From a virus (Duplodnaviria; Heunggongvirae; Uroviricota; Caudoviricetes): a stretch of DNA of 20,373 nt. Position 1 is the stretch's first letter. Each line of letters starts with the position of its first letter. The DNA lies in the IMG/VR virus record IMGVR_UViG_2513237361_000008, positions 1 through 20,373 of that record, one strand, 5' to 3'. This document shows, one piece after another, positions 1,532-20,373 of the stretch. The translations under genes and the position numbers were made by a program. The notes under the pieces are model-generated. The model did no database searches. It was not told the DNA's origin and saw nothing but the letters and a program-made list of their open reading frames with translations.

Positions 1532-1753
1532 TTAATTTGAATACAATGCAATTCTCGAGGACTGAAGTTTCTCGCAATTAAAATTTATCAGTTTTACTTT
1601 CTGCTCTCTGGAAACGCCTGCTTCTTTTTTACCTGAGAGCATTTTTTCGCATTCTGATTTCGTTAGTTTAGATTTTGAATATCTTGTCCAGTTAGTAGGA
1701 GTGCCACCTTCCTTTTCAATAGTGGCGGTAATTTTATACATGAACACCTCCAT
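1532..1753 (-). CDS. ydaC: Rac YdaC-like small protein (alternative start at 1741, which has a GGAGG SD)
   Basis: Minus-strand ORF in the Rac early-left operon, translation MEVFMYKITATIEKEGG...; start codon uncertain among 1813, 1753 and 1741. Confidence 0.6.
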   Translation of the reverse strand: MEVFMYKITATIEKEGGTPTNWTRYSKSKLTKSECEKMLSGKKEAGVSREQKVKLINFNCEKLQSSRIALYSN

Positions 1754-7639: not shown

Positions 7640-7700
7640 TGGTAGGTATATAATGTACTTTGTGTTCATTGATGTAAAGTACTTTAAGTACATTTTGTGT
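7640..7700 (-). promoter_or_regulatory. Leftward early promoter/operator region (PL/OL-like) with ATGTACT-type repeats
   Basis: Copies of ATGTACTT at 7653-7660, its reverse complement AAGTACAT at 7686-7693, and the palindrome AAGTACTT at 7677-7684, embedded in AT-rich sequence with -10-like hexamers on both strands. Exact -35/-10 assignment is not resolved. Confidence 0.5.
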
Positions 7701-7768
7701 GTAAAAAAATGAGATGGGATAAAGTGAAGCACAAACCCGGAGGGGGACGCTACCGGATTTATGCTGGT

Positions 7769-8188
7769 TTAAGAGGCTTTTTGTTTTTTCTTTCGTGCTA
7801 GCTCTTCGTAAATTGCATTGTACTTCTGTTTTTTCTCCTCAAGAGTTTTTAAAAGTTCATCTGTCTCACTGTCAGGGAGCTCGTCCAGAAGGTCAATGAT
7901 GATTTTTTGTCTTGGATTTAACTCCTGATAGAAACGTACCTGTCCACTTTCTTCTGTATCCTCTCCCAAAAGATAGGTTGGTGTTGTTCCAATGAGTGTT
8001 GCTAATTCCCTTAATTTCTCTCGGCGAGGAATTGTTTCGCCATTAAACCATTTGCTAACCGCTTTTGGTGTTAATTTCATTCGACGGGCAATTTCTGCCT
8101 GCCTTCCATGTTGTTCATAACCAGCGTTTTCACAGGCTAGCGCAAGCCTACTGGCGAACTCTTTACGCGCTTTATCTTCATGAACCAT
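7769..8188 (-). CDS. Prophage repressor, cI-like HTH (XRE family), 139 aa
   Basis: Translation contains a helix-turn-helix signature (QAEIARRMKLTPKAVSKWFNGETIPRREKLRELATLIG) and is divergent from a Cro-like gene. No SD before the ATG at 8188, so it may be leaderless like lambda cI from PRM. Confidence 0.75.
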   Translation of the reverse strand: MVHEDKARKEFASRLALACENAGYEQHGRQAEIARRMKLTPKAVSKWFNGETIPRREKLRELATLIGTTPTYLLGEDTEESGQVRFYQELNPRQKIIIDLLDELPDSETDELLKTLEEKKQKYNAIYEELARKKKQKAS

Positions 8189-8267
8189 AAGTTCAATGAT
8201 ATTCGCTCTTGAATGTACTGTCAGTTCTGTTATAGCATGTACTCAAAGTTCACATTGTGAGGGTGAT
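8189..8267. promoter_or_regulatory. Divergent promoter/operator region between the repressor and the Cro-like gene (PRM/PR-like)
   Basis: Two direct copies of the ATGTACT motif at 8213-8219 and 8237-8243, the same motif as in the 7640-7700 region; TTGAAT -35-like hexamer at 8209-8214. Confidence 0.5.
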
Positions 8268-8522
8268 ATGAACCAGAAAACACTTGAAGATGTAATCAAA
8301 ACTGTTCGCGTTTCTGTTGTGGCCGACGTTTGTGGTGTCAGCCAAAGAGCAATCTACAAATGGATGGATAACGGAAAATTGCCTCGCACAGAATATACCG
8401 GCGAAACAAATTACGCTGAAAAAATCGCTCATGCATCAAACGGATTATTTTCTGCTGATGTAATTTTAACTATTGGCAGAAATAAAACTACTACGAAAAA
8501 GCTGATGGGAGTTGATTCATGA
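8268..8522 (+). CDS. Cro-like / YdaS-like HTH DNA-binding protein, 84 aa from ATG at 8268
   Basis: Translation MNQKTLEDVIKTVRVSVVADVCGVSQRAIYKWMDNGKLPRTE... with an HTH; GAGGG SD precedes it. The track start at 8196 would overlap the divergent promoter. Confidence 0.7.
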   Translation: MNQKTLEDVIKTVRVSVVADVCGVSQRAIYKWMDNGKLPRTEYTGETNYAEKIAHASNGLFSADVILTIGRNKTTTKKLMGVDS

Positions 8523-8941
8523 AAATCAAGCATGAGCACATCGAGTCAGTGTTGTTAGCCCTGGCAGCCGAAAAAGGGCAGGCATGGGTAGCCAATGCCA
8601 TTACTGAAGAATATCTGCGCCAGGGGGGCGGCGAATTGCCCCTGGTACCAGGCAAGGACTGGAATAATCAGCAGAATATCTATCACCGTTGGTTGAAAGG
8701 TGAAACGAAAACGCAAAGAGAAAAAATTCAGAAGCTGATCCCAGCAATTCTGGCAATCCTTCCGCGCGAGCTGCGTCACCGACTCTGCATCTTCGATACC
8801 CTGGAACGCCGTGCATTACTGGCGGCGCAGGAAGCGTTAAGTACGGCAATTGATGCGCATGATGATGCAGTCCAAGCCGTTTACCGGAAAGCGCATTTCA
8901 GCGGCGGCGGGTCTTCCGACGATTCTGTCATTGTTCATTAA
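8519..8941 (+). CDS. ydaT: YdaT-like protein (CII-position gene of Rac-type prophages), 140 aa
   Basis: ATGA overlap with the upstream stop; length matches the 140-aa Rac YdaT I recall; GGAG SD. Confidence 0.7.
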   Translation: MKIKHEHIESVLLALAAEKGQAWVANAITEEYLRQGGGELPLVPGKDWNNQQNIYHRWLKGETKTQREKIQKLIPAILAILPRELRHRLCIFDTLERRALLAAQEALSTAIDAHDDAVQAVYRKAHFSGGGSSDDSVIVH

Positions 8942-8953
8942 GCAAAAGTTTCC

Positions 8954-9811
8954 ATGCTGTTTGTGCTTATTCTAAGCCACCGGGCAGCATCATACGGGGC
9001 AATTATGGCCGCATTACCATACATGCAACTGTACATAGCTGATTACCTGGCTGACACCATGCATTTGTCAGCAGAGGAGCATGGTGCGTATTTGTTGCTG
9101 ATGTTCAATTACTGGCAAACAGGAAAGCCAATACCTAAAAACAGGCTGGCAAAAATTGCCCGTCTGACTAACGAGCGATGGGCTGATGTTGAACCATCCT
9201 TGCAGGAGTTTTTTTGCGATAACGGCGAGGAATGGGTGCATCTTCGGATTGAGGAAGATCTGGCATCAGTCAGGGAAAAATTAACCAAAAAATCAGCCGC
9301 AGGAAAAGCATCTGTTCAGGCCAGAAGAAGCAGAAAGGAAGCAGATGTTCAAACAAAACAAGAGAGAAATTTAACAGGTGTTCAAACAGATGTTGAAGTG
9401 GTGTTTGAACATGATGTCAACACAAAGGCAACTAATAAAGATACAGATAAAGATCTAAAAACAGATCCCCCCCTAAATCCCCCCCGGGGGAATCGAGGTG
9501 TCAAAAAGTTTGACCCTCTGGATATTGCTTTGCCGAACTGGATTTCTGTCTCGCTTTGGCGTGAGTGGGTTGAATTTCGCCAGGCATTGCGAAAACCGAT
9601 TCGAACGGAGCAGGGCGCTAACGGGGCGATACGGGAGCTGGAAAAATTCCGCCAGCAGGGTTTTTCACCTGAGCAGGTGATTCGACACAGCATCGCCAAT
9701 GAATACCAGGGCTTGTTCGCGCCGAAAGGTGTTCGACCTGAGACGTTACTCCGACAGGTTAACACCGTCTCGTTACCGGATAGTGCGATCCCGCCAGGCT
9801 TCAGGGGGTAA
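8954..9811 (+). CDS. ydaU: Replication initiation protein, lambda O-like N-terminus (YdaU-like), 285 aa
   Basis: Position upstream of the DnaC-like gene and length 285 aa as I recall for Rac YdaU; the start is uncertain (ATG 8954 has a weak SD). Confidence 0.7.
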   Translation: MLFVLILSHRAASYGAIMAALPYMQLYIADYLADTMHLSAEEHGAYLLLMFNYWQTGKPIPKNRLAKIARLTNERWADVEPSLQEFFCDNGEEWVHLRIEEDLASVREKLTKKSAAGKASVQARRSRKEADVQTKQERNLTGVQTDVEVVFEHDVNTKATNKDTDKDLKTDPPLNPPRGNRGVKKFDPLDIALPNWISVSLWREWVEFRQALRKPIRTEQGANGAIRELEKFRQQGFSPEQVIRHSIANEYQGLFAPKGVRPETLLRQVNTVSLPDSAIPPGFRG

Positions 9812-9817
9812 CTGACC

Positions 9818-18742: not shown

Positions 18743-19312
18743 ATGAGAGAACTACCTAAAGATTATTTTTTAGGAGTAGATGATGAGCTCGTCGATTATC
18801 TTGAAAAACAAGGGGAAGAGACGATACGAGAGATTCATCTTTCTAACAAAACCAATGTTGAGAATGGATACAAACTTCTGAACATTCAGATTGTTGGAAT
18901 TGGTTCATCTTTTTTATTGCTGACACAGAAAACTAATTTCGATTTTCTCACCGCCGGAATTACCACATTTACATTACTATGGACATGGTGCGCCATTTAC
19001 TTGGTATGTACTGGTTTATCTGTGAAGGTTAGGGGCCTGATCAATGCCCCTCCTGATCATCTATATCATGAAAAATATAAGGATATGGAGCCCTCGAGCT
19101 TTAAAATATTCGCTGATGCAGGATATTTAGGACCTGATAAGTTATTGCCGCTTATACGAAGGTATCGCCTTGTTGACTTGAGTGATACAGCAAGAGAGTT
19201 ACTGTTGGAAAATGAGAAAATCCGCACGAGTCTCGATAAAGCAAGGATGTATACCATCCTTGCTCCGGTAGCGGCGATGTTTATCTCGGCTGTTTTTTTA
19301 TATGTTCAATGA
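18743..19312 (+). CDS. Hypothetical membrane protein, 189 aa, AT-rich moron between Q and the lysis cassette
   Basis: GGAGGTGA SD before the ATG at 18743; hydrophobic segments (IQIVGIGSSFLLL, LTAGITTFTLLWTWCAIYLVCTGL, MYTILAPVAAMFISAVFLYVQ); about 32% G+C hand-counted on one line; followed by its own terminator. Confidence 0.7.
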   Translation: MRELPKDYFLGVDDELVDYLEKQGEETIREIHLSNKTNVENGYKLLNIQIVGIGSSFLLLTQKTNFDFLTAGITTFTLLWTWCAIYLVCTGLSVKVRGLINAPPDHLYHEKYKDMEPSSFKIFADAGYLGPDKLLPLIRRYRLVDLSDTARELLLENEKIRTSLDKARMYTILAPVAAMFISAVFLYVQ

Positions 19313-19442
19313 CTGAGTCGGCAGAATCTCCAACAAAAACACGACGTGTAGCAAAGTCTGTAGTACTTTGTGTTGGAGTTGGTTTTGGTGCCACGGGTTG
19401 CTGAGGTTTATTTTCACCTTGTGGTTTGTTTTTTTCAGACAT
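19281..19442 (-). CDS. Candidate small Pro/Gln/Lys-rich protein, 53 aa, convergent with and overlapping the 3' end of the moron gene
   Basis: ATG at 19442 preceded by an AGAGGA SD on the minus strand; low-complexity translation MSEKNKPQGENKPQQPVAPKPTPTQSTT...; could be spurious. Confidence 0.25.
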   Translation of the reverse strand: MSEKNKPQGENKPQQPVAPKPTPTQSTTDFATRRVFVGDSADSVIEHIKKQPR

Positions 19443-19546
19443 AAAAATCCTCTTTGTTTGAATTGTTACTTTTGGCGATTTAACGATATCAAACACGAGT
19501 ATATACCGCCAGAAGCTTAATCTGGCACTCCATCTGGCCCCGGCAT

Positions 19547-19571
19547 GTCCCGGGGCTTTTTCGTTGTTAGG
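19547..19571 (+). terminator. Rho-independent terminator between the moron and the holin
   Basis: GC-rich 7-bp stem gccccgg / ccggggc with a 6-nt loop, followed by TTTTT (19567-19571). Confidence 0.7.
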
Positions 19572-19659
19572 CTCCGGAAACATCCTCGACTTCTTGTTAG
19601 CAAGCCTGAGAGCCTGAATCTTACACTTAGCACCATCCGAACTCTCGGAGGTGAGGCTT

Positions 19660-20001
19660 ATGAAAATGCACAATGCCCCTCATTCCTGGCCTGACTTACT
19701 GGAACTCTTACAAAGTTGGTGGCGTGGAGATACGCCGCTGGGTGCAGTGGTTATGTCAATTATTATGGCTGGTTTGCGCATTGCCTATTTTGGCGGTGGC
19801 GGCGGCTGGAAACGAAAAACGCTTGAGATTCTGCTTTGTGGTGCTCTGACGCTGACCTTTGCATCCGCGCTTGAGTATGTCGGATGGCCTAAATCACTTT
19901 CTGTTGCCATTGGTGGTGGGGTGGGGCTGATTGGTGTTGATGCTATTCGTGGTGCGGCAATGAGGGTCATCGGTAACAAGTTCGGTGCCCATAAGGAGTA
20001 A
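19660..20001 (+). CDS. Holin, lambda S-like class I (three predicted TM helices), 113 aa with a Met-Lys-Met dual-start motif
   Basis: GGAGGTGA SD; translation begins MKMHNAPHSW..., paralleling lambda S MKMPEKHDLL; three hydrophobic segments; immediately upstream of the endolysin. Confidence 0.8.
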   Translation: MKMHNAPHSWPDLLELLQSWWRGDTPLGAVVMSIIMAGLRIAYFGGGGGWKRKTLEILLCGALTLTFASALEYVGWPKSLSVAIGGGVGLIGVDAIRGAAMRVIGNKFGAHKE

Positions 20002-20004
20002 TTA

Positions 20005-20373
20005 ATGCAGACACTTAATTCCCAGCGTAAAGCTTTCCTTGATATGGTGGCATGGTCAGAAGGAACAGATAACGGACGGCAGAAAACCAGAAATCACGGT
20101 TATGATGTTATTGTCGGTGGCGAACTGTTCACTGATTACTCCGATCACCCCCGCAAACTTGTCACGCTAAATCCGAAACTCAAATCAACAGCCGCTGGAC
20201 GTTACCAGCTTCTTTCACGCTGGTGGGATGCCTACCGCAAGCAACTTGGCCTGAAAGATTTTTCTCCAGAAAGTCAGGATGCTGTAGCGCTGCAGCAGGT
20301 ACGATATAGCATCAATCCAAGTAAAAATGCGCTTTCATTTCACATTAACTTACAGCCATTGGTATACGATTAG
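20005..20373 (+). CDS. Lambda R-like endolysin (lytic transglycosylase), 122 aa, apparently truncated or divergent at the C-terminus
   Basis: The first ~98 residues match lambda R as I recall it (NSQRKAFLDMVAWSEGTDNGRQKTRNHGYDVIVGGELFTDYSDHPRKL...), including the catalytic Glu in WSEGTD; after ALQQ the sequence diverges and stops at TAG 20371-20373, the last codon of the window. Confidence 0.65.
   Translation: MQTLNSQRKAFLDMVAWSEGTDNGRQKTRNHGYDVIVGGELFTDYSDHPRKLVTLNPKLKSTAAGRYQLLSRWWDAYRKQLGLKDFSPESQDAVALQQVRYSINPSKNALSFHINLQPLVYD

Follow-up and report, generated by a model that had tools for sequence, protein, structure and literature searches.

We analyzed a gene at positions 18743–19312 of the plus strand in a 20,373-nucleotide (nt) stretch of DNA from a virus of the Caudoviricetes (IMG/VR record IMGVR_UViG_2513237361_000008), referred to here as the window. 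The gene encodes a 189-amino-acid (aa) membrane protein and lies in the slot between a late antiterminator gene (Q) and a holin gene. It is the larger half of a self-contained, horizontally mobile two-gene prophage accessory cassette. The other half is a gene of 53 codons on the minus strand, which converges on the first and overlaps its 3' end. Lambdoid prophages carry the pair in three different cargo slots, among which it moves as a unit. A first-pass annotation, made from the sequence alone, had called the 189-aa gene a cargo moron of the Q-to-holin slot. This holds insofar as the content of the slot is variable and two further moron slots are used, but what was taken for a single gene is a convergent cassette of two. 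Elements of this kind are already known, as moron-type accessory cassettes that sit in cargo slots and follow the logic of an antisense partner. The cassette comprises the following features.

18743–19312, plus strand: gene for a 189-aa inner-membrane protein with three predicted transmembrane (TM) helices (WP_001208722.1; PHROG 11870); ATG start, 189 codons
19442 to 19281, minus strand: gene for a 53-aa hydrophilic partner (MSEKNKPQGENKPQQP...DFATRRVFVGDSADSVIEHIKKQPR; PHROG 14506), convergent with the 189-aa gene
19281–19312, both strands: 3'–3' overlap of the two genes, 32 nt

A convergent gene pair in three cargo slots

The larger gene starts 4 nt downstream of a strong Shine–Dalgarno (SD) sequence (GGAGG, 18734–18738), as had been noted at first reading. 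Its G+C content is 38.9%, compared with 47.1% for Q, 51.2% for the holin gene and 43.6% for the whole window. The earlier description of the gene as AT-rich is correct relative to its neighbors, but the value of ∼32% G+C that accompanied it was too low. Among 5.8 billion proteins searched we found 104 relatives, most of them 189 aa long and all named 'hypothetical'. An exhaustive profile search of 1.84 billion cluster representatives returned only 104 clusters (50% identity), mostly of 160–200 aa. Hosts of the relatives include Escherichia, Klebsiella, Citrobacter, Enterobacter, Morganella, Providencia, Proteus, Serratia, Yersinia, Pantoea, Salmonella and Sodalis, among others. The ratio of nonsynonymous to synonymous substitution rates (dN/dS) is ∼0.09 in comparison with an 89%-identical relative. 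The gene is real, as the first-pass annotation had assumed, and is under purifying selection.

Hydropathy places three hydrophobic helices in the protein, at residues ∼45–62, 68–92 and 169–189. An AlphaFold2 model based on 43 homologues, with a mean predicted local distance difference test score (pLDDT) of 81, contains long helices at 14–62, 68–92 and 134–188. Both results agree with the soluble N-terminal part and two to three TM segments read earlier from the sequence, and put the number at three. Lysines and arginines number 6 in residues 1–44, 1 in residues 63–67 and 14 in residues 93–168. This distribution fits an N-in, C-out topology, with both soluble parts (1–44 and 93–168) in the cytoplasm. 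Predicted to face the periplasm are ∼6 residues between TM1 and TM2 and ∼3 at the C-terminus. The layout would be an acidic cytoplasmic N-terminal helix, TM1 with an invariant IVGIGSSF, TM2, a basic cytoplasmic region of 75 residues, and a C-terminal TM3, with the cytoplasmic part forming a bundle of helices. Positions conserved across the family lie in the N-terminal helix (DDxLVxFLEKQGE and SNxxNxENGYKLL), in TM1 (IVGIGSSFLLLTQ) and in the motif RRYRL. Conservation within the protein is highest in TM1, which has many small residues.

The ATG of the small gene is preceded by an SD sequence, AGAGGA, at a distance of 5 nt. The consensus of its product is MSxxNKPxGExKPQxP...DF(S/A)xxRxxVG(D/N)SA(D/E)xxRKKxK, and dN/dS is 0.08–0.36 for most pairs compared; the gene is protein-coding and under purifying selection. 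RefSeq carries a 71-aa version (WP_152948782.1; 19281–19496, minus strand), and other records give 68–100 aa. The conserved product probably starts at the ATG at 19442 and has 53 residues, the RefSeq call being over-extended. We also considered the block upstream of this ATG as coding sequence, as in the 71-aa call, and rejected it: stops close the frame in other genera, where the DNA is still conserved. A family search recovered only proteins of ∼47–53 aa (plus over-extended calls), from the same taxa as the 189-aa family and never fused to another protein. AlphaFold2 gave no globular fold for the small protein (predicted template-modeling score, pTM, 0.27), with a sole short helix at residues 41–50. 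It looks like a labile binding peptide.

The two genes were consistently found together. The small open reading frame (ORF) adjoins 37/37 of the distinct homologues first examined, and also accompanies those in loci re-examined later, including variants with a GTG start and one divergent copy. The same convergent ORF is called or readable in Serratia, Pantoea and Morganella. The overlap is 20–35 nt in all close relatives; more distant loci have overlaps of 24 nt (L099), ∼29 nt (L109 and L110) and 71 nt (L111). Pairing is kept in metagenome relatives of 27–28% identity, where the small ORF reads MSNQKPSQPKPQQPP...RAIVFDHAE (L099) or MSESKKNSNENKRPQAPQ...KVFLDSAE (L111). At ∼20% identity, only a Pro/Gln-rich ORF occupies the same convergent, overlapping position. 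An intact membrane gene without the small gene was not seen among the homologue loci examined. Because the small ORF accompanies intact homologues down to 27–28% identity, we take the pair, not the 189-aa gene alone, to be the unit of selection.

The pair was found in three kinds of place. The first is the region between antiterminator and lysis genes, with antiterminators of three families (DUF1133, Phage_antitermQ and Antiterm/P22 gp23-like) and holins of type holin_3_1, holin_2_1 or an unclassified type near the cassette; the pair also occurs far from lysis genes. The second is represented by L111, in which the pair lies directly 3' of a Peptidase_S24 cI repressor gene, the position of rexAB in lambda. 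Here the cI stop and the start of the small ORF are on the same strand and 16 nt apart; the large gene converges on the small ORF and runs against the last part of the cI unit. The third, in Klebsiella and related prophages, is between the tail tube/tail-assembly-chaperone genes and the tape-measure gene, which is the position of the HK97 gp15 moron. In the first and third slots, the large gene points the same way as the late genes, and the small gene runs antisense to them.

Where prophages share the Q or the holin but lack the pair, the slot holds other cargo, namely tRNA genes, an ORF6N gene or other gene pairs. In one comparison, the same Q is followed by tRNA genes and a different holin; the same holin can be preceded by other gene pairs. 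These include further convergent pairs, in which a 76-aa plus-strand gene is combined with a 92-aa or a 170-aa minus-strand gene, all of them unmatched in Pfam and PADLOC. Most prophages with the same holin lack the pair. Variable presence among close relatives, a downstream terminator and deviating G+C are all features of morons, and moron status is supported.

The Q-to-holin slot carries stx in Stx phages. Known cargo of this slot in Stx and other lambdoid phages (stx, nanS-p, tRNA genes) occupies the same place, 3' of pR'/tR' and 5' of the holin gene, and is likewise variable in presence. The cassette differs from such cargo in that it encodes no secreted toxin or enzyme, brings its own promoter-like signals, includes an antisense partner and uses other slots as well. 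The occupancy of the slot by stx, together with low G+C and promoter-like signals suggestive of expression in the lysogen, could point to a lysogenic-conversion factor that serves the bacterial host through virulence, envelope modification or stress tolerance. We consider this very improbable. The membrane protein would have almost no periplasmic residues (the ∼6 between TM1 and TM2 and the ∼3 at the C-terminus) and no enzyme motif or family match. Moreover, the family occurs in plant-, insect- and environment-associated Enterobacterales, including the non-pathogens Pantoea, Sodalis, Serratia symbiotica and Trabulsiella. Little periplasmic exposure and this host range make a role in virulence unlikely.

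Promoter-like signals and the pre-holin module

The slot contains a series of candidate expression signals, listed here with its two border genes. Promoter assignments throughout are inferences from conservation.

17979–18521, plus strand: late antiterminator gene (Q-type, DUF1133), left border of the slot; PF06576, E 2.8e-109, and a weak match to PF06530 (Phage_antitermQ)
18456–18547, plus strand: candidate late promoter or promoters, pR'-like; TTGGCT-18-TATATT at 18456–18485 (consensus scan) or TTGATT-17-TTCAAT at 18519–18547 (by eye)
18602–18627, plus strand: hairpin of a tR'-like intrinsic terminator after Q; 10-bp stem, then TTGTTTCT, with a T-rich tail to 18633
18706–18714, plus strand: extended −10-like element of the 189-aa gene; TG 18706–18707, G, TAAAAT 18709–18714, probable +1 at A18722, no −35
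19449–19491, minus strand: conserved non-coding block TGATATCGTTAAATCGCCAAAAGTAAC 5' of the small gene; TG 19491–19490, TATCGT 19488–19483, putative +1 at about G19476
19508–19526: inverted repeat GCCAGA-N7-TCTGGC between the block and the terminator; in most loci, with loops of 5–7 and variant arms GCCGC/GCGGC
19536–19557, plus strand only: hairpin of an intrinsic terminator before the holin gene; 8-bp stem with 7 G–C pairs, then TTTTT, the T run extending to 19562
19660–20001, plus strand: holin gene (lambda S family), right border of the slot; PF05106, E 1.9e-27

Pfam matches to both border genes and the hairpin at 18602–18627 bear out the initial placement of the 189-aa gene between Q, with its terminator, and the holin gene. 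RefSeq labels the Q gene 'DUF1133 family protein', and one phage record labels it 'antitermination protein Q'. A terminator of its own stands at the tR' position in every related locus, and in the window terminators flank the cassette on both sides. By analogy with the TTGATT...TATGCT of related loci, TTGATT-17-TTCAAT might be the late promoter. Read by eye, this candidate, just after the Q stop, and the terminator at 18602–18633 would yield a short RNA of ∼75–80 nt. Such an RNA would resemble the 6S RNA of lambda and the StxS small RNA of Stx phages.

Upstream of the large gene, related loci share an arrangement: a tR'-like terminator particular to each phage, then a conserved ACATTCAGG-TAAAAT 28–34 nt before the ATG. 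Near-invariant across genera are the T at the start of the hexamer, its A and its final T, a G two nt upstream (−14) and an A 8 nt downstream (+1). A TAnnnT hexamer was present at −42 to −24 in 34/40 distinct upstream regions versus 6.3 ± 2.3 in shuffles, although, as the sequences are related, the figure is indicative. In distant members, TATAAT, TACAAT, TATGCT or TAAAGT stands at the corresponding distance. The near-invariant positions are those that an extended −10 promoter and its start site would be expected to show. We also considered the conserved 'ACATTCAGGTAAAAT...GGATGT' as part of an RNA hairpin that sequesters the SD. This was rejected, as RNAalifold found no consensus structure and single-sequence z-scores were near 0. 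Rfam had no match in 18400–19750.

Neither coding sequence is as well conserved as the block TGATATCGTTAAATCGCCAAAAGTAAC upstream of the small gene. The key positions T, G, T, A and T of the block are invariant in 23 loci and fit TGnTATcGT. The block may combine an extended −10 promoter with the first part of a 34-nt leader of the small gene. Inspection of the block by eye revealed no convincing −35 element, no convincing CII-type, LexA, CRP, ArcA, CpxR or IHF site, and no convincing sigma-54 or sigma-28 promoter. In tail-slot relatives, the small gene has a different upstream region.

Beyond the block, the pre-holin terminator is kept in position in most loci and may insulate the lysis genes from plus-strand transcripts that are not antiterminated. 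The first-pass annotation had credited the 189-aa gene with a terminator of its own at 19547–19571. A plus-strand terminator is indeed present, but its hairpin lies at 19536–19557. Nor is it the gene's own, being 224 nt past the stop, beyond the small gene and its promoter region, and common to other cargo. The block, the repeat, the terminator and the holin leader also precede other minus-strand cargo genes in other E. coli prophages, and the block was found in 263/5426 genomes. Because the right-hand part is shared with different cargo genes, it belongs to the slot and not to the cassette. The pre-holin module (19449–19575 in the window; 3385–3500 in L105 and 2500–2610 in L107) adjoins holins of two classes. 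The cargo behind it also includes unrelated minus-strand genes of 92 aa and 170 aa, of no known family and each convergent with a 76-aa plus-strand gene. From its arrangement, the module looks like a portable antisense expression unit for slot cargo.

The position of the 189-aa gene, directly 5' of the holin gene, 3' of tR' and co-oriented with the late operon, could suggest a late accessory of lysis or lysis timing that does nothing in the lysogen, for example a modulator of the holin or a factor that primes the membrane. In Morganella and Pantoea, the ATG follows directly after tR', with no promoter-like element, as such a role would allow. Several observations make this explanation improbable. 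The pair has holin neighbors of at least three unrelated types, is missing from most prophages that share the holin, and also sits far from holins, beside cI or in the tail module. In addition, a terminator separates the 189-aa gene from the holin gene, the antisense partner is obligate, and no similarity to holin or antiholin families was detected. A clear match to a known lysis accessory gene, which the first-pass annotation had named as evidence against its own reading, was not found in Pfam. The occurrence of the pair at a distance from any holin, and beside unrelated holins elsewhere, disfavors a role confined to lysis.

Possible roles of the two proteins

Prophage cargo slots are rich in anti-phage and host-modifying functions, and their content is mostly unannotated. 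Neither protein of the cassette has a match in Pfam or NCBIfam, and in PHROGs both fall in families of unknown function only (PHROG 11870 in the case of the 189-aa protein). PADLOC-DB 2.0 defense models gave no match to either protein at E up to 1; this library dates from 2023, and later systems lie outside it. The failure of the first-pass annotation to recognize a family is in keeping with these results. Sixty-six diverse members of the 189-aa family searched against Pfam gave only scattered sub-threshold matches of TM type. The SLATT, PycTM and YLATT models of Pfam, which describe TM effector domains of conflict systems that are predicted to form pores, did not match the window protein; single sub-threshold matches to PycTM (E 0.016) and YLATT (E 0.054) were each seen in one of the 66 members. 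PDB sequence searches with two profiles gave nothing meaningful, and the 189-aa protein had no match in BFVD. Pfam revealed no similarity of this protein to holin, antiholin or spanin families. When the family profile A2 was compared by hhalign with known exclusion proteins, probabilities were 0.3% for Rac SieB, 0.2% for lambda RexB and 1% for HK97 gp15. Remote homology and structure prediction, the check proposed with the initial annotation, have now been run: profile, PDB and fold searches identified no specific relative, and the AlphaFold2 model has three long helices. A literature search on accession and PHROG number found no paper on either protein. Likewise, we found no description in the literature of the two families, of their obligate convergent overlap or of the portable pre-holin antisense module.

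The cassette probably takes part in conflicts between phages. We tentatively propose that it encodes a life-cycle-switched antagonistic pair, in which the membrane protein is an inner-membrane exclusion or abortive-infection effector and the small protein, together with the antisense transcript, is its restraint. We regard this as possible rather than probable. In a lysogen, transcripts from pR' would end at tR'. A promoter of its own would drive the small gene against the silent late operon; in L111, the small gene is apparently transcribed together with cI. The large gene would be expressed at most weakly, from a promoter lacking a −35, and its transcript would end at 19536–19562, before the holin gene. 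Upon induction, Q-modified polymerase would pass tR', cross the cassette and raise the level of membrane-protein mRNA; colliding polymerases and antisense pairing across the 3' overlap would act against the small gene. The membrane protein would disturb or occupy the inner membrane, resulting in superinfection exclusion or abortive infection.

We favor the membrane protein as the effector because its TM1 is conserved and rich in small residues, because the small protein looks like a labile binding peptide, and because gene breakage is one-sided. In four independent lineages (Leclercia; E. coli/E. marmotae; K. pneumoniae; C. freundii), the membrane gene is broken and the small gene intact. The reverse case was never seen in the loci examined. 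The K. pneumoniae allele (L115, 2501–3203) has a GAG-to-TAG nonsense mutation in the membrane gene and an intact small gene, and recurs in ∼40 sample blocks of assemblies. The L115 cassette lies before a tape-measure gene and adjoins a Rha/antirepressor-like gene.

A number of observations weigh against this proposal. The 4:0 asymmetry in breakage is not significant, given a 3.6-fold difference in target size. A standard sigma-70 scan that requires a −35 found nothing 5' of either gene. Members from Morganella and Pantoea lack the TAAAAT element, with the start lying 20–25 nt after tR', and for lack of that element their gene could be expressed only by read-through, that is, late. Searches of Pfam, PADLOC and NCBIfam and comparisons with SieB, RexB and gp15 revealed no homology to known exclusion, abortive-infection, toxin or holin families, and fold searches with the 189-aa protein gave only generic three-helix, BAR-like matches. 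A toxin released early after induction from a position beside cI would harm the phage itself. Finally, the roles could be reversed, as the immune effector of tha/ith is the gene co-transcribed with cI.

The tha/ith pair of 80alpha and the taiEcA/atiEcA pair of phi80 resemble the cassette in several ways. Each consists of two prophage accessory genes on opposite strands, one of them antisense within a cI or Q-dependent late operon. In those pairs, lysogenic and lytic transcription favor opposite partners, as the anatomy of the cassette suggests they would here, and one partner is small. The layout of the cassette is similarly nested, with the small ORF inside the Q-dependent late region and the large gene of L111 running against the final part of the cI unit. 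The known effectors differ in being soluble (a HEPN RNase and a tail-assembly inhibitor, respectively), as opposed to a three-TM protein with a 3'–3' overlap here. For tha/ith, transcripts were reciprocal by RNA-seq, and immunity and induction were in balance only when the antisense layout was the native one (PMC11087260). For taiEcA/atiEcA, expression of Q lowered TaiEcA, the product of the antisense gene (PMC11364771). The architecture of the cassette matches this recently described way in which prophages reconcile immunity with self-tolerance.

By the same analogy, the small protein might be the effector in lysogeny, for instance by blocking a step of incoming lambdoid phages, and the membrane protein might provide self-immunity or counter-defense in the lytic cycle, by sequestering or neutralizing the small protein once the resident prophage is induced. 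The small gene lies on the lysogenic side: in the window it opposes the late genes, and in L111 it is apparently co-transcribed with cI. The membrane gene has the orientation of the late genes. This would be the exact analogue of 80alpha tha (with cI) and ith (antisense), which makes it a serious rival, and it also mirrors phi80 taiEcA/atiEcA. An intact small gene beside a broken membrane gene, as in the four lineages, is expected if the small gene is valuable alone, and the acidic N-terminal helix of the membrane protein could complement the basic C-terminus of its small partner. Yet it would be unusual for a ∼50-aa protein that lacks its own fold to act alone as an effector, and the membrane protein is the more strongly conserved partner. 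Furthermore, the membrane gene usually has its own promoter-like element, and if this is constitutive, the effector would be neutralized in the lysogen too. On balance, we think this assignment of roles unlikely.

Membrane-acting exclusion systems offer further comparisons for an effector role of the 189-aa protein. HK97 gp15 is reportedly an inner-membrane protein that confers superinfection exclusion. Like the cassette, gp15 is an accessory element of lower G+C among essential late genes, with a terminator after it and an inner-membrane product, and relatives of the cassette sit in its own slot, from the tail assembly chaperone to the tape-measure gene. However, gp15 is a single gene of 62 aa, whereas the cassette comprises two convergent overlapping genes (189 aa and ∼50 aa), and there is no sequence similarity. 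RexA/RexB and SieB are also prophage-encoded. Rex is a two-component system with an inner-membrane partner, and the L111 pair lies at the place of rexAB, between cI and the pL region. Here, too, there are differences: RexB and Rac SieB gave hhalign probabilities of <1%, the partner is a disordered protein of 50 aa in place of a 279-aa sensor, and the genes are convergent rather than co-directional.

The gene pairs txpA/RatA and bsrG/SR4 are type I toxin–antitoxin pairs of Bacillus prophages, with convergent, 3'-overlapping antisense RNAs. The cassette is similar in being prophage-borne and in combining a membrane-protein gene with a convergent 3'-end overlap, which at the level of the genes is 20–71 nt in every member examined. 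It could accordingly be imagined as a selfish addiction module, akin to a toxin–antitoxin system, that stabilizes the prophage or the cassette and has no role in defense. An intact membrane gene was never seen without the small gene in the loci examined, as this would predict, and the same prophage has the type I modules ralR/RalA and hok/sok. But type I toxins are <60 aa and their antitoxins non-coding; here the putative toxin is 189 aa long, and a conserved protein is encoded on the antisense side. The membrane gene is often found in broken form and such alleles persist, which speaks against strong addiction. We give this explanation little credence.

If the membrane protein does act in exclusion or abortive infection, as we tentatively propose, it would add a membrane-acting member to the class of immune/anti-immune pairs. 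Small antisense ORFs, which annotation pipelines often miss or mis-start, would in that case be functional partners. If the cassette is inert, the annotation of the slot and of the small gene is still corrected. A more elaborate version of the proposal, which we hold to be doubtful, is that the three-TM protein forms or gates an inner-membrane lesion under the control of a disordered protein of ∼50 residues encoded antisense to it. This 0.9-kb unit would give the lysogen exclusion or abortive infection, with automatic release when the late operon fires. Linked to this version is the idea that the TGATATCGTTAAATCGCCAAAAGTAAC block may be a portable, lysogen-active antisense promoter for a series of uncharacterized Q-to-holin cargo genes.

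The host prophage

The segment 18520–19660 is 100% identical to chromosomal prophages of several E. coli strains and is complete in 223/5426 complete genomes. The cassette is intact in 223–255 of the 5426 complete E. coli genomes, or roughly 4–5%, and is also found across Enterobacterales. Among deposited phage genomes, the 189-aa gene is rare (5/50,697). Four induced phage isolates (vB_EcoS-666R9 and relatives) share the segment 18520–19660. In E. coli D3, the surrounding annotation is that of a Rac-like lambdoid prophage, with the integration adjoining ttcA. Its genes run in the order intR, xisR, ralR, recT, recE, kilR, sieB, repressor/cro, replication genes and a 1210-aa gene, followed by hok, DUF1367, DUF1364, DUF1133 (Q-like), two 'hypothetical proteins', holin, endolysin, an Rz-like gene, trkG and terminase.

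In the window, the 1210-aa protein (12187–15819, plus strand) has an N-terminal YobI-like P-loop NTPase domain (PF20693, E 8e-123) and matches the PADLOC model of the Tmn defense system (E 1e-66). Because of this match, the prophage already has a likely anti-phage gene, between the replication and late-regulatory regions. Two type I antitoxin RNAs score above Rfam gathering thresholds, namely RalA (partner of ralR; 1557–1735, plus strand) and sok (partner of hok/gef; 16299–16473, plus strand). The prophage therefore holds at least two antisense-regulated toxin modules besides the cassette studied here.

The window also differs from the D3 prophage in places. At its right-hand end, in the lambda-R-like endolysin ORF (20005–20373), the match to the intact D3 prophage ends at 20298; the ORF then continues in unrelated sequence and terminates at a stop codon where the window ends. 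The endolysin gene thus appears to have been truncated in this genome, through rearrangement or insertion. Two regions, 7645–11353 and 16589–16730, cannot be aligned to the D3 prophage, with identity elsewhere at 96–99%. The immunity and replication module is exchanged relative to D3, and includes a helix-turn-helix repressor gene (7769–8188) and a YdaT-like gene (8519–8941).

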